Positions 28,094 to 61,610 of a DNA stretch of 64,000 nucleotides are shown in pieces. A program made the position numbers and the translations under genes. The stretch is from NCBI GenBank assembly GCA_910588565.1, contig CAJUPF010000006.1:531-64530 (forward strand). Direction: 5' to 3'. The stretch's first letter is position 1. Each line of letters begins with the position of its first letter. This DNA is from an uncultured Lachnospiraceae bacterium (lineage in GTDB: Bacteria; Bacillota; Clostridia; Lachnospirales; Lachnospiraceae). Under the pieces are notes generated by a model. The model made no database searches, was not told where the DNA came from, and saw only the letters and a list, made by a program, of their open reading frames with translations.

Positions 28094-28420
28094 ATGGACA
28101 GATTTTCAGAAGAATTACAGCGGCATATAGAAACTGTGGAACGGATAGGCGATAAGATTGAAAATGGAGAAAACTATATGGAAGACATGAAAGGCTATCT
28201 TCCGGCCCTGAACCAGATGATGACAGGGATTTTTCAGATATTGCAGGAGCCGGCTTCCCCACTAGGGTTAAATCAGGGATATGTCGTGCAGGTATTAAAT
28301 GATATTCTGTACGGGATTGAACACAGAGATTCCGTATTTTTGCTGGATGTCCTGCGGTATGGCCTGTTAGAAATTTATCATTTTCTGGAAAAAGAATTGC
28401 AAAGCGAGGGAGTACAATGA
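28094..28420 (+). CDS. Small helical protein of unknown function preceding maf
   Basis: Start ATG 28094 after GAGGAGG. 108 aa. Its stop overlaps the maf start (ATGA). Confidence 0.5.
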   Translation: MDRFSEELQRHIETVERIGDKIENGENYMEDMKGYLPALNQMMTGIFQILQEPASPLGLNQGYVVQVLNDILYGIEHRDSVFLLDVLRYGLLEIYHFLEKELQSEGVQ

Positions 28421-30339
28421 ATCAACTCATTTATGAAAAAAATATGGATGCTTTACGGACAAAATATCCGGTATGGGCTAAGATTTTAGAAGACGTAAAA
28501 CGGAAAAAAAGAAATTTTGACGTAATGGCTGAGGAAAGCCTGACGGGTGAAGTTATTCTTAAAGTAAATCAAGAGGGACGGGTATTGTATCTGAATGGAA
28601 GATACGCGCCCGCCGCGGTGATAGATCGGTGGTTTGACCGCCAGGGGGATATTGAGGAGTACGCTCCTATCGTCATTATCGGCATTTCAAATGGTGAGCA
28701 TATACGCCGGATTATAGAACGCGCGCCTAAGACGTCGAATATTTTGATTTATGAACCATCCTTTGAGCTTTTCCGCAGAGCGATGCAGGAGGTAGATATA
28801 TCTTTTATCTTTCAGCCGGATATTCCCGTCGGGATTATTGTGGAAGGTATGAATGAGTATGAAATGGACGCTTTTTTTCACTTTTTCATTTCTTATGACA
28901 ATATGGCGTTCCTTCGTTATTATGTATCAGGAAATTATCAGGAATTGTTTCCTGAACAGGTAGAAGATTTTGTTGCGGGGATGAAGAAATATATATCAGA
29001 TATTCATGTGTCCTGGGATACGGTTTTGCGTTATGCAAATGTAAGAGCAGTGAACGTACTTGCAAATCTGCCTTATCTATATGAAGGATATAGTATGGGA
29101 GAATTATATGGTATGCTGCCGGAGGATATTCCGGTTATCATTGTTTCTGCAGGTCCGTCTTTGAATAAAAATATTATGGATTTGAAGAAAGCGGTAGGAA
29201 AAGCCTGTATCATTGCTACGGATACGGCTATGAAACCTCTTTTAAATGCGGGAATTAAGCCTAATTTATTTGTAATTGTAGATGGATTAAAGCCAGAGCT
29301 TCTTTTTTTGCATAAAGATATTTCAAAAGTTCCAATGGTTACGATGACGGCTGTATCTACAGAACCTATGGCATGTCATAAGGGAAAGAAGTTTTTTTAT
29401 TATGCGGATTCTGGTTTTGAAAATGAGATATTAAAAGAGCTGGGGGAAAAGGAAGGAGCAAATAGAATGCTGCCTTGTCTGATGACCGGAGGCTCTGTGG
29501 CGACGTCCGCTTTTTCTCTGGCGCTGAATATGGGCGCGAGGACAGTGATTTTGGTTGGACAGGATCTGGCGATGACAGGAAACAGAACGCATGCGGATGG
29601 TACGTTTCAGGATAAAATGGATGAAATCAATACGAACAGCAGAGAGTATTTTGAAATAGAGGCGGCAGACGGCGGTAAGGTTTTAACCAGAGCGGATTTT
29701 AAGCTTTACTTGGAATGGTTTGAAAAATATATTAAAGAATGGGATCATATTACCGTTGTGGACGCGACAGAAGGAGGCGCGTTAATTCACGGCAGTAAAA
29801 TTATGACGTTAAAGAATGCGATTAAAAAATACTGCAAACGAGAATTTAATGTGAAATGGCATATTGACCACTGCAAAAAGTTGTTTGTTGGGGAAAACCG
29901 TGAAATTGCAATCAATTGTTTTGCGAATTCTATTGAAAAATTAGAAGAGGTAAAAAAGAAAGCGAACGAGGGACTGCGTTATTATGAACGTTTGGAGAAG
30001 CTGGTAAAAAAACACAGGGATTCCGGTAAGGAATTGGGTAAGGTCTTAAAAAAGATTAAAAAGCTGAATCACTATATGGAATCAGATTATATGGCGCAGA
30101 CAGTTATGGACAGTCTGGTGGGGTTGAATTATACGCTTCGGCCATTGGTATACCAGATGCAGGAAGAGCGTGCGGATGAGCTTCTGGATGTGGCGGCGCA
30201 GGGCAGAGTTTTATTGTACGGGGTAACAGTAGCTGTGGATGAAATTAAACTGATAGCGGAGAAAACGGTTGTGGAATATGCGAAAACACATCCAATTGAA
30301 AGGAAAAAGAATGGTAGAGAGGGCAATGATCAGTTATGA
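28417..30339 (+). CDS. maf: Motility-associated factor (Maf/DUF115-type) putative flagellin glycosyltransferase
   Basis: Core PVIIVSAGPSLNKN...CIIATDTAMKPLLNAGIKPNLFVIVD...GGSVATSAFSLA...VGQDLA is typical of Maf/MptE-like proteins. Position directly after the flagellin genes. Confidence 0.8.
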   Translation: MNQLIYEKNMDALRTKYPVWAKILEDVKRKKRNFDVMAEESLTGEVILKVNQEGRVLYLNGRYAPAAVIDRWFDRQGDIEEYAPIVIIGISNGEHIRRIIERAPKTSNILIYEPSFELFRRAMQEVDISFIFQPDIPVGIIVEGMNEYEMDAFFHFFISYDNMAFLRYYVSGNYQELFPEQVEDFVAGMKKYISDIHVSWDTVLRYANVRAVNVLANLPYLYEGYSMGELYGMLPEDIPVIIVSAGPSLNKNIMDLKKAVGKACIIATDTAMKPLLNAGIKPNLFVIVDGLKPELLFLHKDISKVPMVTMTAVSTEPMACHKGKKFFYYADSGFENEILKELGEKEGANRMLPCLMTGGSVATSAFSLALNMGARTVILVGQDLAMTGNRTHADGTFQDKMDEINTNSREYFEIEAADGGKVLTRADFKLYLEWFEKYIKEWDHITVVDATEGGALIHGSKIMTLKNAIKKYCKREFNVKWHIDHCKKLFVGENREIAINCFANSIEKLEEVKKKANEGLRYYERLEKLVKKHRDSGKELGKVLKKIKKLNHYMESDYMAQTVMDSLVGLNYTLRPLVYQMQEERADELLDVAAQGRVLLYGVTVAVDEIKLIAEKTVVEYAKTHPIERKKNGREGNDQL

Positions 30340-32006
30340 TAGCGGAAGAAATATTAGCATACGGGATACAGCAATTTGAGGAAAAGAAATATGATGCTGC
30401 TTTAGACGCAATGGTGTTGGCTTTTACAAAAGGATATCAAAGGGAATGGATATTGGCAAATATTTATTCATGCTATATGGATGGCAATGAAGCTGAATTT
30501 AGGGAATGTTATAATACGTGTTGTATTTATAAGGATATTTCTTATACGGAATGCTGCTTGGATTTTATACCATATAAAGACAGCGAATACTATATTTTTG
30601 ATAAGATGGAACAGAAGTTTTTAGGAATTGTATCTGTACAGGAAATGTTTCAGGCAGAGGAGTTAAAAAGGGAGTTTGATGATGTTGCAATTGAGCTTGA
30701 TTGGGACTGGAGAAAATATAAGGAATCACTGAAATGGGCGTTCAAGCATAAGGTTTATGCAATATGTCATGACAGAAAGCGAGCGGCTTCATTTTGTAAA
30801 ATTCCAGAATTTGTAGATTGTTTTAGAAAGATAAAGGCTTTTGCAGACAGGAAGGCATATCAAAAATATTTCCATGAGGACACAGGTGTTGTTTTACCAA
30901 GGTTTTTCCTAGGTGAAGAGGGGAGTCGGCAAGAATTTGTGCGGATATGGGAAGAGGAACATGCATACCGTATAACAGCAGAAGGCAGAAACAAGGATCA
31001 TATTTTGCTGACAATAGGAATCCCTACGTTTGATCGCGGATTTCTGGCCTTACAAAAGGTGAGGAATTTACTGGAAATGACATATGACGCCGAAATTGAG
31101 ATAGTGGTTTCAAAAAATGGAACGAAATTATACCAGGAGGATTATCAGCAAATTGCGGAAATATCAGACGCCAGGCTTCATTATGTGGATCACAATAGAA
31201 CGCTGACAATGGAAGAAAATTTTAGGAACACAATTGCGTTGGCAAAGGGCAGGTATGTCTTGCTGGTGAGTGATGAAGATAATGTGCTGTTGGAGTCTTT
31301 AGACCATTATCTTGCTGTTTTGGCGCGAAATAAAAATTTATCTTATGTTAGGGCAAAAACAAAAATACAATATTCTCATATAAAGGATCATTTCTACAAA
31401 AGAGGAATCGAAGCCTTTTCGGGAGCGTTTCTTGCGGGCAATTATTTATCCGGGAGTATAGTTAAGAGAGAGTCGCTCTTGAAATTGCCATTAGATGAAA
31501 TTAGAGAGTATGCAAAAAATAATGCGTTTTATATACATTATTGCCATGATTGGTGGTTTTCGATGCTTGCTTTTGAAGGTGATTTTCGGCAGGATGCTAT
31601 ATGTTTAATTGCAGAAGGCGAAAGTATATTAGATATGATGCAAGAGGAATATAAGAAAATAGGCGCAGAAAATCCAATTAATTATGGAAATGGAATGCTG
31701 GGATATGCAACATACGAGAGTAGATTGGAACAGTTTAAAGGATATATAGCGTTTTTGCATTTTATCAAAGATGTTGGATTGGATGTCATAAGGGCAGGCG
31801 TACACATAGCAATTGGAAAAACCGGTTATTTATTGCGCATAATCTATGTTATATGTAATTATAAACCGGAGCGGATTGGGGATGTAATGATGCAATTTTT
31901 TGAACTTTGCACACAGGCGGTTGATGAGTTCCCATTTGACGATGTACAGAAGAATGAATTATTATCATGGGCTGTTTTCAACATAGAGGCAATTGTAGCT
32001 AAGTAG
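30336..32006 (+). CDS. Glycosyltransferase family 2 domain protein with a ~215-aa N-terminal extension
   Basis: GT-A core LLTIGIPTFDRG...EIEIVVSKNG...LLVSDEDN (DxD-like). Confidence 0.6.
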   Translation: MIAEEILAYGIQQFEEKKYDAALDAMVLAFTKGYQREWILANIYSCYMDGNEAEFRECYNTCCIYKDISYTECCLDFIPYKDSEYYIFDKMEQKFLGIVSVQEMFQAEELKREFDDVAIELDWDWRKYKESLKWAFKHKVYAICHDRKRAASFCKIPEFVDCFRKIKAFADRKAYQKYFHEDTGVVLPRFFLGEEGSRQEFVRIWEEEHAYRITAEGRNKDHILLTIGIPTFDRGFLALQKVRNLLEMTYDAEIEIVVSKNGTKLYQEDYQQIAEISDARLHYVDHNRTLTMEENFRNTIALAKGRYVLLVSDEDNVLLESLDHYLAVLARNKNLSYVRAKTKIQYSHIKDHFYKRGIEAFSGAFLAGNYLSGSIVKRESLLKLPLDEIREYAKNNAFYIHYCHDWWFSMLAFEGDFRQDAICLIAEGESILDMMQEEYKKIGAENPINYGNGMLGYATYESRLEQFKGYIAFLHFIKDVGLDVIRAGVHIAIGKTGYLLRIIYVICNYKPERIGDVMMQFFELCTQAVDEFPFDDVQKNELLSWAVFNIEAIVAK

Positions 32007-32015: not shown

Positions 32016-33806
32016 ATGATAAAGCTGTCAGATTATATTTTTACATATTTTGAATCTATTGGGATGACCACAGTATTTACACTGACAGGCGGCGGCATTA
32101 TGCATCTGGTAGATTCTCTTGGGCGCAGCAAGATGGAATATGTCTGCTGCCATCATGAACAGGCGGCTGCAATTGCGGCACAGGCTTACGCTATGTATCA
32201 AGAACAAATAAGCGTATGTTTAGTGACTACAGGACCAGGTGGAACAAACGCATTGACAGGAGCTGCAGCCGCGTATGTAGATTCTACGCCTGTACTTTAT
32301 ATGAGCGGACAGGTGAAAAGGGATGATTTTGCGAGACTGAGGGGAGTTAGGCAGTTTGGAGCGCAGGAAAATGATATTGTTGCAATGGCAAGGCCTGTTA
32401 CAAAATATGCTGTATTAGTAATGGAACCAGAAGATATTGCTTATGAATTGGAAAAATGTATTTATCTGGCGACTCATGGGCGGAAAGGGCCTGTCTGGAT
32501 TGATATTCCATTAGATGTGCAGTCTTCGATGATTGACGAAAGCAGGCTGCGGCACTATAAGCCTGATTTTGAGGAAGCGGAGGCAGATTTAAAGCAGTCG
32601 GCGGGGCAGACATTGGATATGCTCGAACATGCGAAAAGGCCGACGCTTTTGGTGGGGCAGGGAATGGTATCTGCGAAAGCACAGGCGCTTACGCGTCAGT
32701 TTGTTGAAATAACAGGAATACCGGTACTTGCCACATGGAGGGCGCTGGATTTTATGGGAAGCGGGGAAGCGGGATTTTTTGGAAGCCCAGGGCTTCAGGC
32801 ACCCAGATATTCAAATCTGATTTTGCAGCATGCGGATGCGTTGCTTGTATTAGGAAGCAGAATGGACAATATGATTACGGCCTTTAATGAAGAACATTTT
32901 GCTTATCGTGCAAAAAAGGTAATTATTGATATTGATGAAAATGAAATAAAAAAACTAGCAATGACAGATGTTTTACCAGTCGTTGCAGACGTCAGGGAGT
33001 TTATGGAAGTTCTGTTAAATGAATGTATGATTCGGGATTTTAAACCGGATTATAGCAGATGGATTTGTAAATGCCAGGAGTTAAAAAACCGATTTCCCGT
33101 TTTAGAGGAAAAGCAGGACAAGGAAGAGAATGTCAGCCTTTATCAGGTTACAGAGGAAATATCGAAATATGCCAAGGTAGAAGATACAATTGTAATTTCA
33201 TCAACCAGCCGCTGCAATACGGCAGGACATATTGCGTTTTCCCATAAAAGAGGACAGAAAACAATATCCTCTATGGGAATGGGATCTATGGGGTTTGCAT
33301 TACCTTCGGCAGTGGGGGCATATTATGCGAATGGGAAGAACCGGGTGATTGTAATAGAAGGCGACGGAAGCTTTCAATTAAACATCCAAGAGTTGGAGAC
33401 AATTGTATCGAATCATATTGAAGCCAAAATATTTGTCTTCAATAACGCCGGATATGCTGCGATTACTACAATGCAGGATCGGAATTTCGACGGTTTTTAT
33501 GTCGGCAGTAATGAGAAAAGCGGATTATTTATGCCAGACTTGGAAAAGATTGCATTTGCCTACGGTATAAAATTCTGTACAATAGAAAATGATGAAGAGA
33601 TAGAGAAAACAGTAAAAGATGTGATGGAACAGAAAGGCGCTGTGATTTGCAGTATAGAAGGCTCGCTTTGGTTTGATGAGATACCGAAATGCGTTTCTGC
33701 TGTAGATCAAAAGACAGGGAAGAGGGTATCAGCGTATTTAGAAAATCCATATCCATATTTAGAGGAAGAAGAGTTAAAAGAAATTGAGACAGAATTATTA
33801 TGGTGA
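32016..33806 (+). CDS. Thiamine-diphosphate-dependent enzyme (acetolactate synthase large-subunit-like; candidate YerE-type sugar branching enzyme)
   Basis: TGPGGTNALTGAAAAYVDSTPVLYMSGQV and the ThDP motif GDGSFQLNIQEL...NNAGY. Confidence 0.8.
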   Translation: MIKLSDYIFTYFESIGMTTVFTLTGGGIMHLVDSLGRSKMEYVCCHHEQAAAIAAQAYAMYQEQISVCLVTTGPGGTNALTGAAAAYVDSTPVLYMSGQVKRDDFARLRGVRQFGAQENDIVAMARPVTKYAVLVMEPEDIAYELEKCIYLATHGRKGPVWIDIPLDVQSSMIDESRLRHYKPDFEEAEADLKQSAGQTLDMLEHAKRPTLLVGQGMVSAKAQALTRQFVEITGIPVLATWRALDFMGSGEAGFFGSPGLQAPRYSNLILQHADALLVLGSRMDNMITAFNEEHFAYRAKKVIIDIDENEIKKLAMTDVLPVVADVREFMEVLLNECMIRDFKPDYSRWICKCQELKNRFPVLEEKQDKEENVSLYQVTEEISKYAKVEDTIVISSTSRCNTAGHIAFSHKRGQKTISSMGMGSMGFALPSAVGAYYANGKNRVIVIEGDGSFQLNIQELETIVSNHIEAKIFVFNNAGYAAITTMQDRNFDGFYVGSNEKSGLFMPDLEKIAFAYGIKFCTIENDEEIEKTVKDVMEQKGAVICSIEGSLWFDEIPKCVSAVDQKTGKRVSAYLENPYPYLEEEELKEIETELLW

Positions 33807-33826: not shown

Positions 33827-34903
33827 ATGAGCGATAAAAAAGAGCTGCCGTTAGTCAGTATATTGATGCCGAACTATAATTATTCCCGGTACTTAGATCA
33901 GTGTATCCAAAGCGCAATTCATCAGACTTATCCTCATAAAGAAATTATTTTCTGTGATAATAGTTCCACAGACGACTCAGTAAAAGTGGCGGCAAAGTAT
34001 AGAAAAGACGGGGTAATGATCTGCAGGAACCAATGCAACATTATGAATTATAATTACAGATTATTAACAGAAGAATACTGCAGGGGAAAGTATTTTATTT
34101 TGTTGTGCACGGACGATTATTTACTTCCAGATTTTATAGAAACGGCGGTTGCCATAATGGAAAAATATCCGGATGTGGGGTATGTACATGGAGAACGGGA
34201 TTTTGTGACTTCGGAAAATAAGTTGGTGGAACAGGATCCCTTTTATAAATGTAGTTTTGTAGCGCCAGGAAAGAAGACAATGCCTGTCTATATGGTAGAG
34301 ACAGTTGCCCATCCGTCACAGGGGGTAATACGCAGGGAGGCTTTTCAAAGCATTGGGGGTTATGATATGGAAATTGACTGCCTGAATGCAGACCGTTCTT
34401 TGTGGTTTTATTTATCTTATCAGTATGACTCTTCATTTATATGTAGGAAAATGAGTAGAATTCGTGTAGGAATTCAATCCGAGACAGCAATTCTTTTGCA
34501 GAATTTCCAAATGCCTGTTTTGTATCATCTTATTATAAAAGATTTTGTTAATTTTGCCCAAAATTACAATCTTCCAGAAGTATATGAGAGGGAAGGAGAG
34601 GCGTTGCAGCGGCTGGCAAAAGAATTTGTAGGATATGCAGGAAATATGTTATATATGAATCATGTGAAACAGGCAGAGGCTTATCTGAAATACGCCAAAA
34701 TTGTATTTAGAGACGTAGTAAATGAAGGATTATATCAGGCGTTTAACAGTATGATTCAGAAAAATTTGGTGGATAAGCGTTTTATAGAACAACAGAATCA
34801 GGAATATAACGAGCATAAGAGGAGCTATGAGCCGCCACAGGGCTATATGGAGATTAACCCGGAGGAATTAGTACGATGGCTGAGGCAAAAATACAGATTT
34901 TAA
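33827..34903 (+). CDS. Glycosyltransferase family 2
   Basis: VSILMPNYNYSRYLDQCIQSAIHQTY...IIFCDNSSTDDS...CTDDY. Confidence 0.8.
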   Translation: MSDKKELPLVSILMPNYNYSRYLDQCIQSAIHQTYPHKEIIFCDNSSTDDSVKVAAKYRKDGVMICRNQCNIMNYNYRLLTEEYCRGKYFILLCTDDYLLPDFIETAVAIMEKYPDVGYVHGERDFVTSENKLVEQDPFYKCSFVAPGKKTMPVYMVETVAHPSQGVIRREAFQSIGGYDMEIDCLNADRSLWFYLSYQYDSSFICRKMSRIRVGIQSETAILLQNFQMPVLYHLIIKDFVNFAQNYNLPEVYEREGEALQRLAKEFVGYAGNMLYMNHVKQAEAYLKYAKIVFRDVVNEGLYQAFNSMIQKNLVDKRFIEQQNQEYNEHKRSYEPPQGYMEINPEELVRWLRQKYRF

Positions 34904-35868
34904 TACCCACATGTAACAGTGTGAATGATTTGGATATAACCGTGGAAAGTATACAAGAACAGAATTACGATCCTGAGAATATTTACATTACCATTGTGGA
35001 TTTTGGATCAAATGATGGAACATATGAAAAAGCCTTAGGTTATAATGGGAAACATCTGGGGATATATTCAAGGCCGTTTCAGAAAAATTGGAGGCAGCGG
35101 CTGACGGATGCTGCAAGAATTATCGAATTTACACGTCCAGGCGGTATGTATTGTTTATCAGCAGTGATGTATCCAGGAGATATTATGTATTCGGACTGCC
35201 TTCAAACGATTTCGGACAAATATATAGAAAGTTTTCAGTTACATCCATCAATGGTAGTATGTGAAAGTGATATTTTTCTGGATAATGGCGAGATAGAGAA
35301 GCAAGGCTCGTTATTTGCAGAGGATTGCGTCATAGATGGGAGCAGGGAGATAAACAAATATGTTGAAAGAGGTTACCGGCATCAGATTTTCCAAATGACT
35401 CCAGAATTTGCCAGAGGGAGGCGTAAGGAGAATTATGAAATGAATGAAGGAAGAAGCTGGAATAAGCTCTTTTGGAGAAATGAGGAAAGGATGACCCTAT
35501 ATATACAGAAACCATTGGTGTGTACAAGAAGAATGATATATGAGGATGAGCTTCAGGAAATCTTGTATCGTTGGGACGCTCATATACATATTGTCCGTTG
35601 GTATACAAATAAATATGGACAGGTATTTGACAATAGGTTTTTAGATGTTGCAAATGCGAATTTAGCAGAGTACGCTCTCTGGAGAAGTTTTTCCCTGCAT
35701 CAAAAAAAGGCGCAGTGGAAGGAAATAGAGGATTGCTTTTTGATTTCAGAAGTTATCTCTTCCACCATAAAGGAAAAAGAAATTTATTCTAAAATGCAAA
35801 AATTGATATTGGAAAAGGATTTGGCGGAGAAAAGCTCCATTAAACAATACTTTAGTAAACAGTATTAA
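34876..35868 (+). CDS. Glycosyltransferase family 2-like
   Basis: IQILIPTCNSVNDLDITVESIQEQNY...ITIVDFGSNDGT. Overlaps the previous gene by 28 nt. Confidence 0.6.
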   Translation: MAEAKIQILIPTCNSVNDLDITVESIQEQNYDPENIYITIVDFGSNDGTYEKALGYNGKHLGIYSRPFQKNWRQRLTDAARIIEFTRPGGMYCLSAVMYPGDIMYSDCLQTISDKYIESFQLHPSMVVCESDIFLDNGEIEKQGSLFAEDCVIDGSREINKYVERGYRHQIFQMTPEFARGRRKENYEMNEGRSWNKLFWRNEERMTLYIQKPLVCTRRMIYEDELQEILYRWDAHIHIVRWYTNKYGQVFDNRFLDVANANLAEYALWRSFSLHQKKAQWKEIEDCFLISEVISSTIKEKEIYSKMQKLILEKDLAEKSSIKQYFSKQY

Positions 35869-36954: not shown

Positions 36955-36955
36955 A

Positions 36956-53553: not shown

Positions 53554-55947
53554 ATGCCGAATGTTTTGCTGGTAAAAGGAGATTCACAGTACAGCGCCAT
53601 GCGTAATTATATAGACGAGATAGAAATGGGATTTCGTATGGCTGGTTATCATACAGTCGTGTTAGATGTAACAGAGGAATCATGGAAATTTCAGTATGCA
53701 GAAATGATGAACAGTCTTAGAATCGATATTACTTTTGTTTGTAATGCAATTTTAACAAAGCCGTTGGGACAGGCATATTATATGACTTATCTGGCGGATC
53801 ATCCGGCATTTCATAAACATCGGTTAGAGGGGCTGAACGACAGGTCAATCGTCTTTGTTTGCGACAGGCGTCATAAATCGTATATGGAACGGTATTGTCC
53901 TAATATAAAATATGTGGAATATATTCCGTTATCCGGAGAAGCCGTAAAACGGCATATACCATATCGGGAACGCACCAGGGACATTGTGTTTACAGGAAGT
54001 TATAAAAAGCCGGAAGAAGCCTATCATGAAATTTTTACATGCGATCCGGCCTGCCATGAAATGTTACGGTATATGGCGGATAGTATAATAGAAAATCCAC
54101 AGCAGGATCTGGAAATGTGTCTGCAGAATTGCCTGGATTATTTTGGATTAGAAGTATCCAGGCAGGAATTTGATTCTTATATGGAAGGATTCAGAGTGGT
54201 AGACGCATATGCAAGAATTTTTTATCGGGATAAAATGATCCGGTGTTTAGTAGAAAGCGGATTGCAGGTGCATGTGTTTGGAAATGGGTGGGAAGCATTT
54301 GAAGGAAATGGGAAAGAGAATCTGATTGTTGAAGCGGGCGATTATTATGTAGCCAGAAAAGCAGTTGCAGATTCAAAAATTTCAATTAATATTATGCCTT
54401 GGTTTAAAGATGGATTTCAAGAACGGATCGCTGCGGCAATGTTGAGCGGAGCCGTTGCTGTGACAGATGAGAGCAGGTATATCCGGGAGAATTTTACAGA
54501 CGGAAAAGAAATGGTGTTTTATTCTTTGCAAAAGCTTGAAGAGCTTCCCGGCAAGATAGAGTGGCTGCTAAATCATCCGGATTGTGCGGAAGAGATAGCT
54601 TTAACCGGGAAAGTGCGCGCGCAGAAGGAAATGACCTGGCAGCATCGTACATTTGAAATGATACGATATATGCAGGAATGCTTTTCGCTGCCGGCGCCTT
54701 TGAAAGGTAAGTTTGGGGAAATTCTTCCTATTTCATACAACATATTTCATGAACGCAATATGTTATTGGATGCCGTGGCTCAATTTAACGAAATCATTGC
54801 AATGGTTTCTAATGTGAAATTATACAGTAAAATGGAATTGGAGGATGTAGACTATTTTTATACGAGATTTCTTACTTTATTTGTAAAAATTAACGCCAAT
54901 TTTCCGGAGATTCGTTATTCTGAGTATATCTATCAATTGTTAACAAATTTAGCCGAAGGTCAGGCGGATTTGGGTACAGAATTATTGCTACTGGAATGCA
55001 TGCACATGCTTTCTGTATTTTTGACGATGGAAAATGAACAATTGAAGAAAGAGAAGGATATACTGCAATTGCAGGTGAAACAGGGAAATTCCAGGCCAAA
55101 TCAGTTTGCACAGCAAATGCTTATTCGTAAATTGAAATTAAAGTATCAGGAATCGGGAGATAAAGATATTCAGGAAATCTTACGAAATATCGAAAAAAAT
55201 CAGTCTGTAGAGGCATATAATCAGGATTTTGCAGACAAATACAAATATGCGGATAAACGATTAAACGAGGTTTGGTATGATCCGGAAGCCGAGATGCATT
55301 TTACCCTTTGGAACGGCAAAAAAATCTATTATCCGAAAGGGTATACCAAAGAAGAGGTGGCACTGGCGATTAACTTTGTGTACCTGGAACAGGATTTGGA
55401 CTCGCCGCACCGTTACCTGGACGATACGTTTTCTGTAGACGAAGGGGATATTGTAGTAGACGCCGGAGTTGCCGAGGGAAACTTTGCTTTAGAAATAATA
55501 GAAAAAGTAAAAAAAGTTTATTTAGTGGAATGCGAACATAAATGGATCGAAGCGCTGCAAAAAACGTTTGAGCCATGGAGGGAGAAAGTTGTTATAGTTG
55601 AAAAAATGCTGGGTGATGCAGATAATGAAACTTGTGCGAGCCTGGATCAGATCGTGGAAGAGGGTTATGTAAATTTCCTTAAATTGGATGTTGAGGGAGC
55701 GGAAGTTCCCGCGTTAGAAGGGGCGTCTAAAATTCTGTCTGACAGCAGAAATGTAAAATGTGCCATTTGTTCATATCATCGGAAGAATGCAGAAAGGGAT
55801 ATTCGGGAAATTCTGGAAGCGCATCATTTTTATACGTCAACGACAAAAGGATATATGTTTTTTAAGGAGGATATGGATAGTTGGATAGCCGGTGATCTTC
55901 GGCATGGCATTGTCAGGGGAGTGAAGCAGGAGTGGAAAAGGAACTAA
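53554..55947 (+). CDS. CgeB/DUF3880-like glycosyltransferase domain fused via a coiled coil to a C-terminal FkbM methyltransferase (paralog 3)
   Basis: NIMPWFKDGFQERIAAAMLSGAVAVTDESRYI. C-terminal VVDAGVAEGNFA...LKLDVEGAEVPAL. Confidence 0.6.
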   Translation: MPNVLLVKGDSQYSAMRNYIDEIEMGFRMAGYHTVVLDVTEESWKFQYAEMMNSLRIDITFVCNAILTKPLGQAYYMTYLADHPAFHKHRLEGLNDRSIVFVCDRRHKSYMERYCPNIKYVEYIPLSGEAVKRHIPYRERTRDIVFTGSYKKPEEAYHEIFTCDPACHEMLRYMADSIIENPQQDLEMCLQNCLDYFGLEVSRQEFDSYMEGFRVVDAYARIFYRDKMIRCLVESGLQVHVFGNGWEAFEGNGKENLIVEAGDYYVARKAVADSKISINIMPWFKDGFQERIAAAMLSGAVAVTDESRYIRENFTDGKEMVFYSLQKLEELPGKIEWLLNHPDCAEEIALTGKVRAQKEMTWQHRTFEMIRYMQECFSLPAPLKGKFGEILPISYNIFHERNMLLDAVAQFNEIIAMVSNVKLYSKMELEDVDYFYTRFLTLFVKINANFPEIRYSEYIYQLLTNLAEGQADLGTELLLLECMHMLSVFLTMENEQLKKEKDILQLQVKQGNSRPNQFAQQMLIRKLKLKYQESGDKDIQEILRNIEKNQSVEAYNQDFADKYKYADKRLNEVWYDPEAEMHFTLWNGKKIYYPKGYTKEEVALAINFVYLEQDLDSPHRYLDDTFSVDEGDIVVDAGVAEGNFALEIIEKVKKVYLVECEHKWIEALQKTFEPWREKVVIVEKMLGDADNETCASLDQIVEEGYVNFLKLDVEGAEVPALEGASKILSDSRNVKCAICSYHRKNAERDIREILEAHHFYTSTTKGYMFFKEDMDSWIAGDLRHGIVRGVKQEWKRN

Positions 55948-57536
55948 AAGAAATCTGCAGAGAGATAGAATGTGAAATAAAGCGTATCAGAGCGGATGAA
56001 GTAAGCGGGAGACTGGCGCTGCAGATGAGAGAGTTTGCCCAAATATACCGGAAGCTTCCCGAAATACAAAAAAGAGAAGCGCTTTGGAACGCAGCTGGCA
56101 GGATCGATAAAGAAAAATATCTGTCTGCGATATATATGTATTCTGTTTTAACATTTTATATCCACGAAAGGAAGTGGATGGTTGAGCTGTTGGAAATTAT
56201 CTTAAACTCACCGGGGCTGCGCGCAGATACATTGTATTTTTTGTACTGGCAGATAGCGGCCAGATTTGTGAATGATCCTGAATGTGAATCAGAAACTGGT
56301 AAAGCGCTGCATTGGAAATTGTTTCAACGTATATGTAACATGTATGCCAAGAACGTACGAGGATTGGAATGGATAAAACAGGAAGACAGGAACAGGGAAT
56401 TTGTGGTTGTAATCATGACGCAGTATGCAGGAGTCGGCTTACATGGCCCTTCAAAGACAGCGCTGGATCGTTGCAGAGTGTTAATTGAAGTTATGCGTAA
56501 GCGGGTGCTGCTTATAAATACTGCCGAAGCAGGTTCTATGAGAGGCTGTATTCCTTTCATTGGGATGTTTGTTCCAGAGTATATGGAAGAATTGTGCAAT
56601 GAGGAATATTTGGAATGGAAAACTGTGAAAGTTCCTTTTTTTCAATGTGAGAATAATATGCCTGATATAAATGTGCTGCAGCTTTTGTCAGAGAAAATAA
56701 CAGGCTTAAAACCGCAGTTTATTTTAGAAATAGGAACGGGGAGCATACTTGCGAATCTGCTTAGCCGCAGTTTTCCTGTTTTATCGGTTGTTACAGGATT
56801 TTCCAGGTTATCGGTGACTGAGACACAATACCAGGTATCCGCAGCCGCCATAACCGATAAGGAACGCTGGATATTATCGCAGGTGGGAAAAGAGCAAAAT
56901 CATGTAATACCATCTGTATTTACATTTGGCTTAGCAAAGCAGCAGATGTTTTTAAACAGAAATGAACTGGGACTGCCTGATAATAAATTTTTAATTGCAG
57001 TTGTGGGGACGCGGCTGGACAGGGAAATAGACGACGCGTTTATGAAGATGTTATGTCAGGTTGATAATGCTGGTATAGGATGTGTATTTATTGGCGAATT
57101 TGAAAATTTCAACAGTTATATACAAAAGTATTCTGAATTGGACAAATGCATGTATTATCTTGGGTCATGTAATGATGTGCTTGCAGTATTAGAAGTATGC
57201 GATCTGTTTGTTAACCCGATCCGTTTGGGCGGCGGAACATCGGCGGCAGAGGCAATGAGCAAAGGGCTTCCAGTGGTCTCTACCGCTTATGGCGACGTAG
57301 GCGTTACAGTGGGAGAATCATTTTGGGTGGAAGATTATTGTGAAATGGCAAAGTTTATAAACAGATATCAGCAGGATAAATCATTTTATAAAATACAATC
57401 TGAACTGGCAAAGAAAAGATCAGAACTTCTGTTAGATACAGATCGGGAATTTGTAAATGTGATCAGAGAGTTTGGCAAAAGGATGGGAGAACATTACGCT
57501 GACGCGGCTTTGCATCGGAAGGAAAGAGAGTCCTGA
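55932..57536 (+). CDS. GT-B (GT1/GT4-like) glycosyltransferase with a helical N-terminal region (GTG start)
   Basis: C-terminal NPIRLGGGTSAAEAMSKGLPVVS. Confidence 0.55.
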   Translation: MEKELKEICREIECEIKRIRADEVSGRLALQMREFAQIYRKLPEIQKREALWNAAGRIDKEKYLSAIYMYSVLTFYIHERKWMVELLEIILNSPGLRADTLYFLYWQIAARFVNDPECESETGKALHWKLFQRICNMYAKNVRGLEWIKQEDRNREFVVVIMTQYAGVGLHGPSKTALDRCRVLIEVMRKRVLLINTAEAGSMRGCIPFIGMFVPEYMEELCNEEYLEWKTVKVPFFQCENNMPDINVLQLLSEKITGLKPQFILEIGTGSILANLLSRSFPVLSVVTGFSRLSVTETQYQVSAAAITDKERWILSQVGKEQNHVIPSVFTFGLAKQQMFLNRNELGLPDNKFLIAVVGTRLDREIDDAFMKMLCQVDNAGIGCVFIGEFENFNSYIQKYSELDKCMYYLGSCNDVLAVLEVCDLFVNPIRLGGGTSAAEAMSKGLPVVSTAYGDVGVTVGESFWVEDYCEMAKFINRYQQDKSFYKIQSELAKKRSELLLDTDREFVNVIREFGKRMGEHYADAALHRKERES

Positions 57537-57563
57537 TTGGATAACAGTTTGAGGGAAAAACAT

Positions 57564-58340
57564 ATGAAAGTAGTAATTTTAGCAGGCGGACTGCCAAGCA
57601 CGTTAATTGAAGAAGATGAGAAAATTCCAAAACCCATGGCGGAAATTGGAGGAAGGCCGATTTTATGGCATATTATGAAGCAATATGCCCATTATGGCTG
57701 CAAAGATTTTATCATTTGCACGGGTTACAAAGGAGAAATGATAAAAGAGTATTTTATGAATTTTTACATCTATCAGTCGGATATTACGGTGGATTTGCAG
57801 TCCAACCAAATAGAAATCCATAAAAAAAGAACGGAAGACTGGAAGGTGACGGTGATAAATACTGGAAGGCATTCTTCGGTATCAGAACGTATTTTATGTA
57901 TTCGGGAACTTTTACAGGAGGAACCGTTTCTTGTGACTTATGGGGACTGCGTATCGGATATTGATATAGCGAAGATGATAAGGCAGCATAGAAGCGGGGG
58001 CAGAGCCGCTACCTTTGCAGCGGCATATCCGACTGGCAGAAACAAAATTCTTCCCATTAATCGGAACGGAGATCTTGACATATTTGCAGATCCATCTTTC
58101 AGCAGCACCCCCTGGGTAAATGCCTGCAGCATGGTATTTGAGCCAGGGATATTTCATTATTTGGACAGAGGCGAGACGCTGTTGGGGGAGCGAATGTTAA
58201 GGCGCCTGTCAGCGCGGGATGACGTCTCTGTATACTGCCATGAAGGTTTCTGGTCGCCTATGGAAACCATTCGCGACAAAACTCTGCTGGAATATATGTG
58301 GAATACAAATCAGGCGCCATGGAAAGTATGGGAAGATTAA
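57564..58340 (+). CDS. Glucose-1-phosphate cytidylyltransferase-like protein with a degenerate nucleotide-binding signature
   Basis: Start ATG 57564 (MKVVILAGG). Overall close to RfbF (PKPMAEIGGRPILWHIMKQY..., GFWSPMET), but it reads GGLPSTL where RfbF has GGxGTRL. Confidence 0.7.
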   Translation: MKVVILAGGLPSTLIEEDEKIPKPMAEIGGRPILWHIMKQYAHYGCKDFIICTGYKGEMIKEYFMNFYIYQSDITVDLQSNQIEIHKKRTEDWKVTVINTGRHSSVSERILCIRELLQEEPFLVTYGDCVSDIDIAKMIRQHRSGGRAATFAAAYPTGRNKILPINRNGDLDIFADPSFSSTPWVNACSMVFEPGIFHYLDRGETLLGERMLRRLSARDDVSVYCHEGFWSPMETIRDKTLLEYMWNTNQAPWKVWED

Positions 58341-58379
58341 GGGGAAAAGAGAACGATTACGATTTCATGAAAAGGACGG

Positions 58380-59447
58380 ATGAAAGTGAAAAATCTCAAT
58401 TTTTATAAAGGAAAAACCATACTGGTTACAGGCCATACAGGTTTCAAAGGAAGCTGGCTGTGTACCATGCTGCAGATGGCAGGAGCTAATGTCGTAGGAT
58501 ACGCACTGGCTCCCTCTGCAGAAGCACAGCTGTTTTCTCTGTCAGAAGCAGGCAGTAAGATGCATTCCATAGAGGGTGATATACGCGATTTGGATCACCT
58601 GCAGAAAGTATTTCAAGAGCACAATCCACAAATTGTCTTTCACCTCGCAGCGCAGCCGATTGTACGGGAGAGTTACAATAATCCAGTATACACATATGAT
58701 ACAAACGTAATGGGGACTGTGAATGTCCTGGAATGTATCAGAACCGCAGCGGGAGTAATTTCTGCAGTCAATGTCACCACTGACAAAGTATACGAAAACC
58801 AGGAATGGGACTGGGGCTATCGGGAAACAGATCCGCTGGATGGCTACGACCCCTATTCCAACAGCAAATCCTGCTCGGAACTGGTGACCCACAGTTATAA
58901 AAAATCTTTTCTGGATAATATGAATATCCCGGTTTCTACTGCCAGAGCCGGCAATGTGATTGGCGGCGGAGATTTTGCAAAAGACAGGATTATTCCGGAC
59001 TGCATTCGTGCAGCTATGGCGGGAGAAGAGATTATCATTCGCAATCCTTATGCTATCCGCCCTTTCCAGCATGTCTTAGAACCGTTAAGCGCATATCTGA
59101 TGATAGCGGAGCAGCAGGCAGTATCTGCGGAACAGCAGGGATATTATAATGTGGGTCCGCAGGAAAGCGACTGCATCACCGTAGGAGAGCTGGCGGATCT
59201 GTTCTGCCGTATCTGGCAGGATGGAGCTTCCTGGAAAAATATCCATGACGGTGGACCTCATGAGGCGTCTTTTCTAAAGCTGGATTGCTCCCGCATTAAG
59301 AGCAGAATCGGCTGGAAGCCAAAATGGAATATACAAAAGGCAGTAGAAAAGACAGTGGAATGGACAAAAGTTTATCAGGAACAGGGAAATGTCAGAGCCT
59401 GTATGGAAGCACAGATAGATGAGTTTCTGTCTTCAAATACGCTCTAG
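58380..59447 (+). CDS. rfbG: CDP-glucose 4,6-dehydratase
   Basis: KTILVTGHTGFKGSWL, YSNSK, and a length and C-terminus typical of RfbG. Confidence 0.88.
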   Translation: MKVKNLNFYKGKTILVTGHTGFKGSWLCTMLQMAGANVVGYALAPSAEAQLFSLSEAGSKMHSIEGDIRDLDHLQKVFQEHNPQIVFHLAAQPIVRESYNNPVYTYDTNVMGTVNVLECIRTAAGVISAVNVTTDKVYENQEWDWGYRETDPLDGYDPYSNSKSCSELVTHSYKKSFLDNMNIPVSTARAGNVIGGGDFAKDRIIPDCIRAAMAGEEIIIRNPYAIRPFQHVLEPLSAYLMIAEQQAVSAEQQGYYNVGPQESDCITVGELADLFCRIWQDGASWKNIHDGGPHEASFLKLDCSRIKSRIGWKPKWNIQKAVEKTVEWTKVYQEQGNVRACMEAQIDEFLSSNTL

Positions 59448-59464
59448 AGAAAGGACAGATAAAT

Positions 59465-60808
59465 ATGTTTGAACATAAATCAGAAGCGCAGGCACGGGAA
59501 GAAATCCTTCAGATGGTGGAGGAATACTATAAAACCTTTCATCAGAAAAAAGAAACGTTTCAGGAAGGAGACAGAATCGCTTACGCTTCCCGTGTCTATG
59601 ACCAGGAAGAAATGAAAAACCTGGCGGACAGCGCATTGGAATTTTGGCTGACGTCAGGTCGTTATACGGAGCAGTTTGAGCGTGAACTGGCAGAATATAT
59701 CGGGGTGCGTTATTGCTCTCTGGTAAATTCAGGCTCTTCGGCGAATTTGCTGGCATTTATGGCGCTTACGTCGCCGCTGCTGGGGGAGCGGCGCATTTTT
59801 CGCAGAGACGAAATCCTGACAGTAGCGGCGGGCTTCCCGACTACGGTGACGCCTTATATTCAATATGGCGCGATACCGGTTTTTCTGGATCTGACCATTC
59901 CCCAGTACAATATCGATGTGTCTTTGCTGGAGCAGGCCTTGTCAGAACGGACAAAAGCTGTGATGATAGCGCATACTCTGGGCAATCCATTTGATTTAAA
60001 AGCAGTGCGGGAGTTTTGTGACAGGCACGGGTTATGGCTGATCGAAGATAATTGTGACGCCCTGGGCAGCGAATACTGTATGGATGGCGTCTGGAAAAAA
60101 ACAGGCAGTATCGGAGATATCGGTACCAGCAGTTTTTATCCGCCGCATCATATGACGATGGGAGAGGGCGGCGCCGTTTACACGGACAATCCTCTTTTGC
60201 ATAAAATTATTCGTTCCATGCGGGACTGGGGGCGCGACTGCGTGTGTCCTTCCGGACAGGATAATCTGTGCGGGCATCGGTTTGACAGGCAGTATGGGGA
60301 GCTGCCATTGGGTTACGATCACAAATATGTCTACTCACATTTTGGCTATAATTTAAAGGCGACTGATTTGCAGGCTGCAATCGGCTGCGCCCAGCTGAAA
60401 AAGCTTCCGGAGTTTACCAGAAGACGGCGGGAAAATTTCAGACGGTTAAAAGAGCAGTTACTGGAAGTGGAGAATAAGCTGATACTTCCGGAAGCATGTC
60501 CTGACTCTAACCCATCCTGGTTTGGATTTCTGATTACTTGCAAAGATGGGGTGGATAAAAATCAGGTGGTAGGTTATTTAGAAAAGCATGGTGTACAGAC
60601 ACGAATGCTGTTTTCCGGAAATCTGGTTAAGCAGCCATGTTTTGATGAAATGCGGCAGCAGCAAGAGGGATATCGTGTACCGTGTACCCTCAGTACGACG
60701 GATTCTATTATGGAGCACAGCTTCTGGATAGGCGTATATCCGGGTATGACGGAAACAATGATAGATTATATGGCAAAGACGATAAAAGAAGCGGTCAGGA
60801 AGATGTAA
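59465..60808 (+). CDS. rfbH: RfbH/DdhC (E1)-type PMP-dependent NDP-4-keto-6-deoxyhexose 3-dehydratase
   Basis: SSFYPPHHMTMGEGG (His where aminotransferases have Lys), Cys cluster DCVCPSGQDNLCG, NLVKQPCF. Confidence 0.88.
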   Translation: MFEHKSEAQAREEILQMVEEYYKTFHQKKETFQEGDRIAYASRVYDQEEMKNLADSALEFWLTSGRYTEQFERELAEYIGVRYCSLVNSGSSANLLAFMALTSPLLGERRIFRRDEILTVAAGFPTTVTPYIQYGAIPVFLDLTIPQYNIDVSLLEQALSERTKAVMIAHTLGNPFDLKAVREFCDRHGLWLIEDNCDALGSEYCMDGVWKKTGSIGDIGTSSFYPPHHMTMGEGGAVYTDNPLLHKIIRSMRDWGRDCVCPSGQDNLCGHRFDRQYGELPLGYDHKYVYSHFGYNLKATDLQAAIGCAQLKKLPEFTRRRRENFRRLKEQLLEVENKLILPEACPDSNPSWFGFLITCKDGVDKNQVVGYLEKHGVQTRMLFSGNLVKQPCFDEMRQQQEGYRVPCTLSTTDSIMEHSFWIGVYPGMTETMIDYMAKTIKEAVRKM

Positions 60809-60833
60809 ATGAAATAGTGCAGGGAAATTTTGT

Positions 60834-61610
60834 ATGATGAAAGTAGTTATTTTAGCAGGCGGAAAAGGGACAAGGATCAGTGAAGAATCCAGGCTTCGCC
60901 CCAAACCTATGGTGGAAATCGGGGGTAAGCCGATTTTGTGGCACATTATGCGCCAGTATGCGTCGTTTGGATTTCAGGAGTTTATCGTATGCTGCGGATA
61001 TAAAGGGCATATGATAAAGGAGTATTTTGTGAATTATTACCAGAACAGCAGTCAGATAGAAATCAGTCTGAAAAATCAGCATGTGAATATCCTGGAGAAA
61101 AACAGTGAGCCCTGGAAAGTAACGTTAGTGGATACGGGCCTTGAGACATTAACGGCAGGGAGAATTCTGCGTGTGCGGGAGTATATTGGAGACGGCCCGT
61201 TTCTGCTTACATATGGGGATGGCGTTTCAAATGTGGATTTGCACAGACTTTTGCAGTTTCATCAGGAGCAGGGGAAGACGGTTACCATTTCCACAACGCA
61301 GCCGGAAGGACGGTTTGGCGCACTGCGCCTGGATGATACCGGGAAGCAGATTCTGGGATTCCAGGAAAAGGCCAGAGAGGATCAGGCGTGGGTAAATATT
61401 GGGTTTATGGTAATGGAACCTTCTGTTTATCCGTATCTTGGAGATGGAAGCGTCATGCTGGAACGGGAACCATTCGAGCAGCTTGCAGCAGACGGGCAGC
61501 TTGCGGCATATAAACATACAGGTTTCTGGTCGCCCATGGATAATATTCATGACAGGGAATACCTGGAGAAACTCTGGAATACCGGGGAGGCGCCTTGGAG
61601 AGTGGGTTAG
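60834..61610 (+). CDS. rfbF: Glucose-1-phosphate cytidylyltransferase
   Basis: MMKVVILAGGKGTRISEES..PKPMVEIGGKPILWHIMRQY...GFWSPMDN. Confidence 0.9.
   Translation: MMKVVILAGGKGTRISEESRLRPKPMVEIGGKPILWHIMRQYASFGFQEFIVCCGYKGHMIKEYFVNYYQNSSQIEISLKNQHVNILEKNSEPWKVTLVDTGLETLTAGRILRVREYIGDGPFLLTYGDGVSNVDLHRLLQFHQEQGKTVTISTTQPEGRFGALRLDDTGKQILGFQEKAREDQAWVNIGFMVMEPSVYPYLGDGSVMLEREPFEQLAADGQLAAYKHTGFWSPMDNIHDREYLEKLWNTGEAPWRVG

Follow-up and report, generated by a model that had tools for sequence, protein, structure and literature searches.

A probable Maf-type flagellin O-glycosylation island with a conserved core and mosaic cargo in an uncultured Lachnospiraceae bacterium

We analyzed a 64,000-nucleotide stretch (the window) of contig CAJUPF010000006.1 from an uncultured Lachnospiraceae bacterium (assembly GCA_910588565.1, contig positions 531 to 64,530; coordinates below count from the first letter of the window), in which 27 consecutive plus-strand open reading frames (ORFs), termed g01 to g27, fill positions 28094-61610 (about 33.5 kb, 98.6% coding by ORF listing and translation). 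A preliminary description had taken this interval for a flagellin glycosylation island. The position of its gene for Maf (motility-associated factor), a sigma-28-type promoter box, the soluble nature of the encoded proteins, and conserved synteny in related species support that proposal in silico, and we consider it likely that the locus is a Maf-type flagellin O-glycosylation island lying beside two identical flagellin genes. The features discussed are collected in Table 1.

The signals at the head of the island are the first line of evidence. A strong stem-loop with a T-run lies 3' of each flagellin gene, and beyond the second of these stands a sigma-28/SigD-type box, 5' of g01. The preliminary description was right that no such box lies inside the island, but it missed this one at 27881-27907. 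The window contains four matches to the strict sigma-28 pattern where 0.84 would be expected, and three of the matches are intergenic on the plus strand, before flaG, flagellin 1, and the island; a degenerate box precedes flagellin 2, at 26461. Six contigs of the same species have the island-head box in identical form, and it is kept 5' of the g01 homologue in two relatives, Eubacterium sp. 14-2 (L007), where it is the sole match in 21.9 kb, and L008. Further, it shares the extended consensus TAAAGTnT...CCGATAT with the flagellin promoters of relatives. In five other relatives g01 lies 70 to 150 nt after a flagellin gene, and four of those five flagellin genes possess a sigma-28-type box. Because a terminator and then a conserved sigma-28-type box precede g01, the island most plausibly forms a late flagellar transcription unit, putatively sigma-28-dependent.

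The presumed acceptor, the 369-aa flagellin, has about 30 Ser/Thr residues (about 21%) in its central region, and thus has acceptor potential. The tandem duplication that produced the two flagellin genes (25020-27830) takes in promoter and terminator, with 95.9% DNA identity over 1379 nt. All six examined metagenome or metagenome-assembled genome (MAG) contigs with the island Maf start within or just past this repeat (window 27711-27772); hence, public assemblies usually split the island from the flagellar cluster.

The first three genes of the island are the most telling in their conservation. The first, g01, codes for a helical protein without a match in Pfam or NCBIfam, even in a relaxed Pfam scan. 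Its homologues stand immediately 5' of Maf in eight relatives (48 to 62% identity), ORFs of about 109 aa are found in two more distant loci (L034 and L035), and D85, R88, Y89, and G90 are nearly invariant in the family. A role as a partner of Maf or in the handling of flagellin is possible. The product of g02, translationally coupled to g01, matches the MptE-like domain PF01973 with 125 bits (cut-off 34.6) and Maf_flag10_N (PF20157) with 24.9 bits (cut-off 23.5), and matches the Maf structure 5MU5 weakly. It is predicted to be a Maf but no PseD orthologue, since it scores 112 in the PseD-specific NCBIfam model, against a cut-off of 670. The third protein, g03, itself falls under the Pfam threshold for family 2 glycosyltransferases (GT2), but it has at least 200 homologues of about 570 aa, many with PF00535, in which the motifs IPTxxRG and SDEDD are invariant. 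Its AlphaFold model (predicted local distance difference test [pLDDT], 94.2; predicted template modeling score [pTM], 0.90) places a GT-A domain between two N-terminal helical hairpins (four helices) and a C-terminal helical bundle, and Foldseek matches it to RmlT, TarS, TarP, and SpsA with a probability of 1.0. No tetratricopeptide repeat (TPR) profile matched g03 in a relaxed Pfam scan, despite the TPR-like appearance of the N-terminal hairpins. In the genomes examined, g03 homologues always adjoin Maf or flagellin. The four GT2 proteins counted earlier thus stand, three being clear by Pfam and the fourth, g03, through the GT2 matches of its family, its motifs, and the GT-A model.

A search for relatives of the island Maf gave proteins of 65 to 72% identity from eight Lachnospiraceae species: Eubacterium sp. 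14-2 together with Roseburia-, Agathobacter-, and mouse- or rabbit-gut MAGs. In all eight g01 directly precedes Maf; in most, flagellin lies before this pair and g03 after it, and a thiamine diphosphate (ThDP) enzyme often comes next. Flagellin, g01, and Maf are adjacent in nine other genomes; in L007 and L011 there is no flagellin within the available upstream sequence. The more distant L034 and L035, reached through their g03 homologues, have the same layout. The comparison with related species that had been proposed as a check therefore shows a conserved core of flagellin, g01, Maf, and the GT2 protein g03, and behind it a mosaic cargo exchanged between species.

The packing of the interval is as tight as had been described. 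The five ATGA start/stop overlaps reported at 28417, 30336, 41147, 43360, and 44253 are exact, three more occur at 34876 (-28), 40731 (-13), and 55932 (-16), and the largest gap, put at about 100 nt, measures 102 nt (42193-42296). Consensus scans of the interval also bear out the claimed lack of internal terminators and sigma-28 boxes: no intergenic terminator-like site was found within 28094-61610, every match being intragenic and their number near the shuffle expectation, nor does the interval contain a good sigma-28 box; the matches obtained under relaxed criteria, at 44705 and 56108, both lack the extended consensus. Sigma-70-like matches inside the island, no commoner than in shuffled sequence, were left uninterpreted. 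Co-directionality, on the other hand, holds for the 27 genes but is no trait of the island in particular: the plus strand carries every one of the 52 ORFs in the window (361-63906), so that a shared direction is weak as island evidence. This uniformity, together with a positive GC skew in every 2-kb bin of the window, fits leading-strand DNA of a Firmicute.

Loci for surface polysaccharides just as typically contain GT2, GT4, rfb, and sugar-modification genes. Of the structural matches of g03, the top ones (RmlT, TarS, and TarP) are wall-teichoic-acid glycosyltransferases, and cell-envelope genes have been reported within the flagellar region of Clostridium sporogenes (PMC13317340). The genes could, on this account, constitute a capsule, cell-wall, or teichoic-type polysaccharide locus that merely adjoins the flagellin genes. 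We regard this as highly improbable. Hydropathy analysis gave no convincing transmembrane segment in any of the 27 proteins, the sole windows over the threshold being two in the pyridoxal phosphate-dependent aminotransferase g10, and Pfam scans of the same proteins detected no Wzx, Wzy, ABC exporter, or phosphoglycosyl transferase; the flippase, polymerase, exporter, chain-length regulator, and polyprenyl-phosphate priming transferase of a capsule locus are thus all missing from the 27 genes. Instead, a translationally coupled Maf heads the locus, behind a sigma-28-type promoter, and the linkage to flagellin is conserved in relatives.

Beyond Maf and g03, the interval contains several further glycosyltransferases, among which the PF13524 (CgeB-like) proteins g20, g21, and g22 are paralogues of one another (38 to 59% identity). 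In the AlphaFold model of g20 (pLDDT, 92.2), two twin-Rossmann modules stand in tandem, the extra N-terminal one having a beta/alpha pattern of the GT-B type, and as a whole model, rather than per module, it is matched by Foldseek with a probability of 1.0 to the GT-B/GT4 structures 8XSH, SdgB, TarM, BshA, and GtfC, of which SdgB and GtfC are protein O-glycosyltransferases. No PDB sequence match was found for g21. Relaxed Pfam scans returned no family for the N-terminal module of g20, the N terminus of g23, or the downstream protein d1 (see below). The g20 N-terminal module recurs in other proteins, either by itself or joined to a GT2, PF13524, PF13712, or methyltransferase domain. An apparent strain-level disruption of g22 and g23 was an artifact: the "insertion" in contig L026 is a run of Ns, and the truncations in L027 and L028 are contig ends.

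The domain list of the preliminary description for the remaining enzymes proved essentially right by Pfam and NCBIfam, with weak support for its ATP-grasp entry. The ThDP-dependent enzyme g04, which carries a GDG motif, appears closest to YerE-like carboligases rather than simply acetolactate synthase (ALS)-like. Its top solved relative is JanthE (8RPH; 337 bits over residues 2-587), a characterized YerE-like enzyme (PMC12188165), with ALS-annotated chains at 245 bits or less. YerE joins pyruvate to CDP-4-keto-3,6-dideoxy-D-glucose, and the rfbF, rfbG, and rfbH genes of the island together with the YerE-like g04 therefore predict an acyl-branched 3,6-dideoxyhexose. In the relative L032, a ThDP enzyme 40% identical to g04 lies in a contiguous string of genes for RfbH, an HMGL-type aldolase, the ThDP enzyme, an FkbM protein, a short-chain dehydrogenase/reductase (SDR) 45% identical to g18, a methyltransferase, and RfbF, with RfbH and the aldolase flanking the ThDP enzyme; this string is the published signature of an acyl-branched-sugar cluster. 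Homologues of the FkbM protein g08 come after the ThDP enzyme in L010, L012, and L032, and those of g18 (36 to 45% identity) co-occur with it in L007, L011, L012, and L032. The closest PDB matches of g19 are a D-mycarose 3-C-methyltransferase (76 bits) and TcaB9 (67 bits).

The NeuB-cupin fusion g09 scores under the NCBIfam cut-offs for both NeuB and PseI, and its nearest PDB chain is the SpsE-like 3G8R (376 bits). Its features suggest a candidate second ulosonic-acid synthase, because in L035 Maf is followed by the same fusion and then by a CMP-transferase (CTP_transf_3). Given that arrangement, we dropped as our preferred view the idea that g09 stands in for the aldolase that would feed long-chain donors to the YerE-like enzyme. 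The probable ATP-grasp ligase g13 reaches only an E value of 0.056 with Pfam ATP-grasp_3 and nonsignificant values of 0.16 to 0.56 with LysX/RimK-like PDB chains. Hence, of the glycan predicted earlier, the multisugar, methylated, and branched character appears reasonable, but its amino-acid decoration depends on this weak call. We offer a sharper, more speculative prediction from the gene content: a legionaminic acid (Leg)-type sugar, a further ulosonic acid made by the NeuB-cupin fusion, a 3,6-dideoxyhexose bearing a YerE-type acyl branch and/or a C-methyl group, and a 3-amino-3,6-dideoxyhexose.

The first of these sugars is encoded mainly beyond the interval. Its right boundary had been set at 61610, but glycosylation genes go on at 62868-64000 and past the window end. 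The first gene after g27, d1, keeps the same neighbors in all six places examined (22 contigs read); it is probably an insertion, since in L014 rfbH runs straight into the nonulosonate genes and there is no d1 homologue. The next, d2, was considered as kin to g01, both being small, helical, and placed before a module, but at 15% identity the idea was dropped. The NeuB/LegI-type synthase that is cut by the window end continues on contig L026, which is 100% identical to the window over 51942-64000 (12 kb) and proceeds, up to a window-equivalent position of about 70200, through NeuB with an SAF domain, a NeuC/LegG-type hydrolyzing epimerase, CTP_transf_3, a CBS-nucleotidyltransferase (PtmE-like), LegB, and LegC, after which come ThiT and an aldo-keto reductase. 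By NCBIfam the assignments exceed their cut-offs for LegB (TIGR04180, 520 against 475), LegC (TIGR04181, 449 against 420), NeuB (479 against 400), and NeuC (419 against 236), where the NeuB and NeuC models do not separate Leg from Neu. Gene content thus fits best a complete seven-gene pathway of the legionaminic-acid type, the presumed donor supply of Maf, lying outside the interval first described and mostly outside the window. As the identical contig carries this pathway onward, the overall locus comes to about 42 kb and 36 genes. The contigs with the exact NeuD protein were all shorter than 2 kb, and the extension past the window end was obtained through d1 instead; exact-pattern and protein scans of JGI metagenome contigs for the NeuB/NeuD region gave nothing useful.

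The composition of the cargo raises the question of whether it acts as one system. GC content varies from 34 to 48% per gene (40% for the island overall). The rfb genes (57537-61610) stand at 43 to 48% against 34 to 44% in the rest, and they are 74 to 84% identical to those of L014, the core proteins being only about 65% identical; the two observations together suggest a recent interspecies exchange of the rfb module. In L033 (GCA_023664305.1, 5505-11359), csrA and a 528-aa flagellin are accompanied by two PF13524 glycosyltransferases and a protein homologous to the N-terminal module of g20; Maf and sugar-synthesis genes are both lacking. This cassette may be a simple Maf-independent flagellin glycosylation system, and it ties the PF13524 proteins and the g20 module to flagellin independently of Maf.

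A further sign of variability is a G tract in the radical S-adenosylmethionine (SAM) gene g07. At 36152-36161 the window has the interrupted allele GGGGATGGGG (G4-AT-G4), and other assemblies, at 99.7 to 99.9% identity, have G7, G4-T-G8, or a frameshifting G9, assembly error being possible. The G9 allele, found in two samples, splits g07 into products of 83 and 250 aa. From these assembly variants, and by analogy with Campylobacter glycosylation genes, the tract is a possible phase-variable contingency site. A G7 homopolymer also lies at 42179-42185, 8 nt before the stop codon of g12, where a change in length would touch the last few residues only.

It is possible, then, that the locus is a mosaic of independent modules, in which Maf and the Leg pathway add single nonulosonates and the GT2 and GT-B enzymes build separate short glycans elsewhere, so that gene number overstates glycan size and some genes are redundant, strain-variable, or switched off. 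The cargo that varies among relatives behind a kept core, the differing GC of the modules, the capacity of PF13524 enzymes to act Maf-free implied by L033, the frameshifting g07 allele, and the three PF13524 paralogues all speak for it; the tight packing, the five couplings, and the lack of an intergenic terminator or good promoter in 28094-61610 favor co-expression instead. We would give this arrangement somewhat less than an even chance. It concerns the product rather than the target, and is compatible with flagellin being what the island modifies.

Taking flagellin glycosylation as the function, we propose the following course. The flagellin transcript would stop at the terminator 3' of flagellin 2 (27797-27821), and transcription would restart from the sigma-28/SigD-type promoter (27881-27907), giving one long, partly translationally coupled transcript through g01 to g27. 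Read-through and/or the sigma-70-like promoter at 61635 might then carry transcription to the nonulosonate genes. Soluble cytoplasmic enzymes would make several activated sugars: a CMP-legionaminic-acid-type nonulosonate from the LegB/C/H/G/I/F- and PtmE-like genes; a second ulosonic acid made by the NeuB-cupin protein, with the haloacid dehalogenase (HAD) phosphatase perhaps taking part; CDP-4-keto-3,6-dideoxyglucose from RfbF/G/H, which the YerE-like g04 would acyl-branch, an SDR reduce, and FkbM and/or the 3-C-methyltransferase methylate; and, from FdtA and DegT, a 3-amino-3,6-dideoxyhexose, perhaps acylated by the ATP-grasp-like protein. Maf, and probably g03 too, would attach the first sugars, still in the cytoplasm and ahead of export, to Ser/Thr in the central domain of flagellin, and the other eight glycosyltransferase modules (three GT2, two g20 modules, two PF13524 GT-B, one GT4) may extend or diversify the glycan.

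Several points weigh against this scheme. The single-operon interpretation, probable as we think it is, relies on absent signals in simple consensus scans. Between g27 and the Leg module lie a 242-nt gap and the unrelated d1, and within that module the NeuD-type acetyltransferase (155 against 161) and the PseF-type CMP-transferase (184 against 206) are just under their cut-offs. The placement of g04 among YerE-like enzymes draws on best hits and not on a phylogeny. The partner of RfbH, CDP-6-deoxy-delta-3,4-glucoseen reductase (E3), is not in evidence: Pfam and NCBIfam scans of the ORFs of the island, the adjacent flagellar cluster, and the downstream region returned no ferredoxin-NADP-reductase-type protein. 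E3 is also absent from the rfb blocks of relatives that we inspected, and it may be supplied in trans.

Finally, the names CgeB-like and SpsE-like derive from spore-coat polysaccharide proteins: the family PF13524 takes its name from CgeB, a Bacillus spore maturation protein, and the PDB entry that g09 matches best carries the annotation spore coat polysaccharide protein E. Many Lachnospiraceae sporulate. Part of the island (the CgeB-like glycosyltransferases and the SpsE-like NeuB-cupin protein) could accordingly serve the spore surface, or else S-layer or pilin O-glycosylation. The argument rests only on family names, however, and the genes in question lie within the same tight string behind the sigma-28-type promoter, with no sporulation-type promoter or gene nearby; moreover, PF13524 glycosyltransferases directly follow flagellin in L033, as the NeuB-cupin fusion directly follows Maf in L035. 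We consider a role of this kind very unlikely, and retain flagellin as the target.

Flagellin glycosylation islands are already known in Campylobacter, Aeromonas, Clostridium, and Geobacillus. The Campylobacter jejuni locus Cj1293-Cj1342 comprises about 50 genes and directs Maf-dependent O-glycosylation with pseudaminic acid (Pse) and Leg derivatives; its content varies among strains, and its glycosylation genes undergo poly-G phase variation. Campylobacter adds modified monosaccharide nonulosonates rather than oligosaccharides assembled by glycosyltransferases and has several maf paralogues, whereas here there are one Maf, ten glycosyltransferase modules, and deoxyhexose pathways. For Aeromonas the involvement of a lipid carrier has been proposed; the present locus is without a membrane component. 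We nevertheless find in the Aeromonas polar flagellin system (Maf plus Fgi glycosyltransferases) what looks like the best functional analogy for a Maf combined with many glycosyltransferases: as reported, a Maf-transferred nonulosonate linker is extended by glycosyltransferases into a heterogeneous oligosaccharide, in a Gram-negative bacterium, from a smaller island, and with other sugars (PMC7874193).

The closest Gram-positive parallels are the flagellar variable regions of Clostridium butyricum, C. sporogenes, C. acetobutylicum, and C. botulinum, which hold 2 to 89 genes, some with 3,6-dideoxyhexose genes and TPR-GT2 proteins (PMC13317340). Like the present island, they contain Maf and stand in the flagellar locus by multiple flagellin genes, with Pse/Leg pathways and extra glycosyltransferases and methylases, the TPR-GT2 proteins having been proposed as flagellin glycosyltransferases (PMC13317340). 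They lie between flgB and fliD, however, whereas this island is downstream of fliS and the flagellins (PMC13317340), and its core of g01, Maf, and g03, often followed by a YerE-like ThDP enzyme, sets it apart. That report is without mention of ThDP or radical SAM enzymes (PMC13317340); PF13524 GT-B proteins were not looked for there. The Geobacillus islands (13.4 to 30.4 kb, 11 to 23 coding sequences) likewise occur in the late flagellar cluster beside flagellin, with GC content under the genome average, Maf and/or glycosyltransferases, nonulosonate pathways, and mosaic types (PMC5109656). The present locus is somewhat larger (33.5 kb, or about 42 kb with the Leg module) and has CDP-hexose, YerE-like, radical SAM, and PF13524 genes; the Geobacillus report mentions no ThDP, radical SAM, or dideoxyhexose genes, and PF13524 was not looked for there (PMC5109656). 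Against these ranges (PMC5109656, PMC13317340) the island, earlier called exceptionally large, is large yet within what is known.

The cargo further resembles the clusters for acyl-branched sugars (yersiniose, erwiniose, and caryophyllose, with YerE/YerF or ErwE/F/I) in its rfbF/G/H genes, YerE-like ThDP enzyme, SDR candidates, methyltransferases, and glycosyltransferases (PMC9306805, PMC12247030), and L032 additionally matches them by the HMGL-type aldolase next to its ThDP enzyme. The known acyl-branched sugars decorate the O-antigens of lipopolysaccharide (LPS) or mycobacterial glycolipids, and YerE-like enzymes have been described as mainly LPS related. Here, by contrast, the YerE-like gene lies in a Gram-positive flagellin island, with no E3 reductase or aldolase within the window.

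Our literature search found no published study of flagellin glycosylation in Lachnospiraceae. The flagellins of this family are major immune targets in the gut, the group includes immunodominant Crohn's disease antigens, and Eubacterium sp. 14-2 and similar relatives are used as models of host immunity to them. Should these flagellins be heavily glycosylated, the recombinant unglycosylated versions used in immunology may misrepresent the native antigen. The locus predicts a sigma-28-driven operon of about 34 kb, a core of g01, Maf, and GT2, a YerE-like enzyme outside the LPS context, and PF13524 enzymes as flagellin-associated transferases; a YerE-type acyl-branched sugar on flagellin would belong to a class reported until now from LPS, mycobacterial glycolipids, and antibiotics alone. 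The most far-reaching form of the proposal is that Lachnospiraceae flagellins bear a Leg-anchored oligosaccharide that includes a YerE-type acyl-branched 3,6-dideoxyhexose, is assembled wholly in the cytoplasm by the TPR-like GT2 and a set of PF13524 GT-B enzymes not described before, is switched in part among strains by a poly-G tract in a radical SAM gene, and shapes recognition by TLR5 and antibodies. That all of this should hold together is unlikely.

Table 1. Predicted features of the flagellin genes, the island, and its downstream extension
Feature	Position	Strand	Basis or remark
Sigma-28-type box of flagellin 1	25020-25046	+	Pattern scan
Flagellin gene 1, 369 aa, presumed acceptor	25234-26343	+	Pfam Flagellin_N/C; start read from sequence
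Flagellin gene 2	26672-27781	+	Pfam Flagellin_N/C; protein 100% identical to gene 1
Intrinsic terminator after flagellin 2	27797-27821	+	Terminator scan; 11-bp stem, 6 GC pairs, T-run
Sigma-28/SigD-type box TAAAGTATTTGTTTTGCTGTCCGATAT	27881-27907	+	TAAA-N15-CCGATAT pattern; 187 nt 5' of first island ORF
g01, 108-aa helical protein, no family	28094-28420	+	ORF; ATGA overlap, translational coupling to maf
g02, Maf, candidate flagellin nonulosonate transferase	28417-30339	+	Pfam
g03, GT-A/GT2, candidate second flagellin-directed glycosyltransferase	30336-32006	+	Family motifs, AlphaFold/Foldseek
g04, YerE-like ThDP-dependent carboligase, candidate sugar-branching enzyme	32016-33806	+	Three ThDP domains (Pfam)
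g05, GT2	33827-34903	+	Pfam PF00535, 77.7 bits
g06, divergent GT2	34876-35868	+	PF00535, 33.4 bits, N-terminal motif alone scoring
g07, radical SAM/SPASM enzyme	35926-36954	+	Pfam; weak similarity to BtrN, DesII
g08, FkbM-family methyltransferase	36956-38053	+	Pfam/NCBIfam
g09, NeuB-like synthase and cupin fusion	38079-39614	+	Pfam NeuB plus Cupin_2
g10, DegT-family sugar aminotransferase	39619-40743	+	Pfam, 384.6 bits
g11, FdtA-type 3,4-ketoisomerase	40731-41150	+	Pfam FdtA, 171.7 bits
g12, GT2	41147-42193	+	Pfam, 117.6 bits
g13, probable ATP-grasp ligase	42296-43363	+	NCBIfam PRK12767, E 1.7e-19, under cut-off
g14, extended SDR	43360-44256	+	Pfam/NCBIfam
g15, HAD phosphatase	44253-44879	+	Pfam/NCBIfam
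g16, FkbM methyltransferase	44896-46104	+	Pfam/NCBIfam
g17, radical SAM/SPASM	46159-47238	+	Pfam/NCBIfam
g18, extended SDR, candidate YerF-like reductase	47271-48251	+	Pfam Epimerase
g19, nucleoside diphosphate (NDP)-hexose 3-C-methyltransferase, TylC3/TcaB9-like	48270-49433	+	Pfam Methyltransf_14
g20, 821 aa, two tandem modules	49448-51913	+	N-terminal ~315 aa without Pfam family; 319-821 PF13524, CgeB-like
g21, PF13524 CgeB-like glycosyltransferase	51973-53502	+	Pfam; 58.6% identical to paralogue g20
g22, PF13524 glycosyltransferase with C-terminal FkbM methyltransferase	53554-55947	+	Pfam
g23, GT1/GT4-type, ~330-aa unannotated N terminus	55932-57536	+	Pfam
g24, rfbF-like	57537-58340	+	NCBIfam, 302 > cut-off 300
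g25, rfbG, CDP-glucose 4,6-dehydratase	58380-59447	+	NCBIfam, 449 > 278
g26, rfbH/E1, 3-dehydrase	59465-60808	+	NCBIfam, 706 > 423
g27, rfbF	60834-61610	+	NCBIfam, 370 > 300
Sigma-70-like promoter, TTGCCA-17-TATACT, extended TG, in gap after g27	61635-61663	+	Consensus match only
d1, 306 aa, no family	61853-62773	+	ORF
d2, 120 aa, DUF8042 in precomputed annotation	62868-63230	+	Small, helical, loosely g01-like
NeuD/PglB-family N-acetyltransferase, LegH-like, first nonulosonate gene	63235-63906	+	TIGR03570, 155 bits against cut-off 161
NeuB/LegI-type synthase start MSIMIIAEAGVNHNGS, cut by window end	63911-64000	+	Sequence; continued on L026

Directly upstream of the flagellins lies the late flagellar cluster, with flgM, flgN, two flgK genes, flgL, fliW, csrA (19379-19594), flaG, fliD, fliS, and an FlgN-like gene. 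The two adjoining FlgK-like hook-associated protein genes (13747-17372) code for 582 and 617 aa, with about 27% identity in their N-terminal parts. After the FlgN-like gene, and ahead of flagellin 1, comes an inserted AAA-ATPase_like/PDDEXK_9 gene (23122-24912). Its homologues (34 to 52% identity) lie within the glycosylation islands of L013, L016, and L018 or next to them, and L034 possesses HipA-like and PDDEXK_2 genes at the same spot. The spot upstream of flagellin 1 looks like a hotspot for selfish or defense-like insertions. Unrelated to the island are a TnpB/Cas12f-like gene (OrfB_IS605 and TNB domain) at the left window edge (361-1296) and, at 2042-9011, a tellurite-resistance-like cluster with YceG-domain, TelA, and TerD genes and a P-type ATPase.

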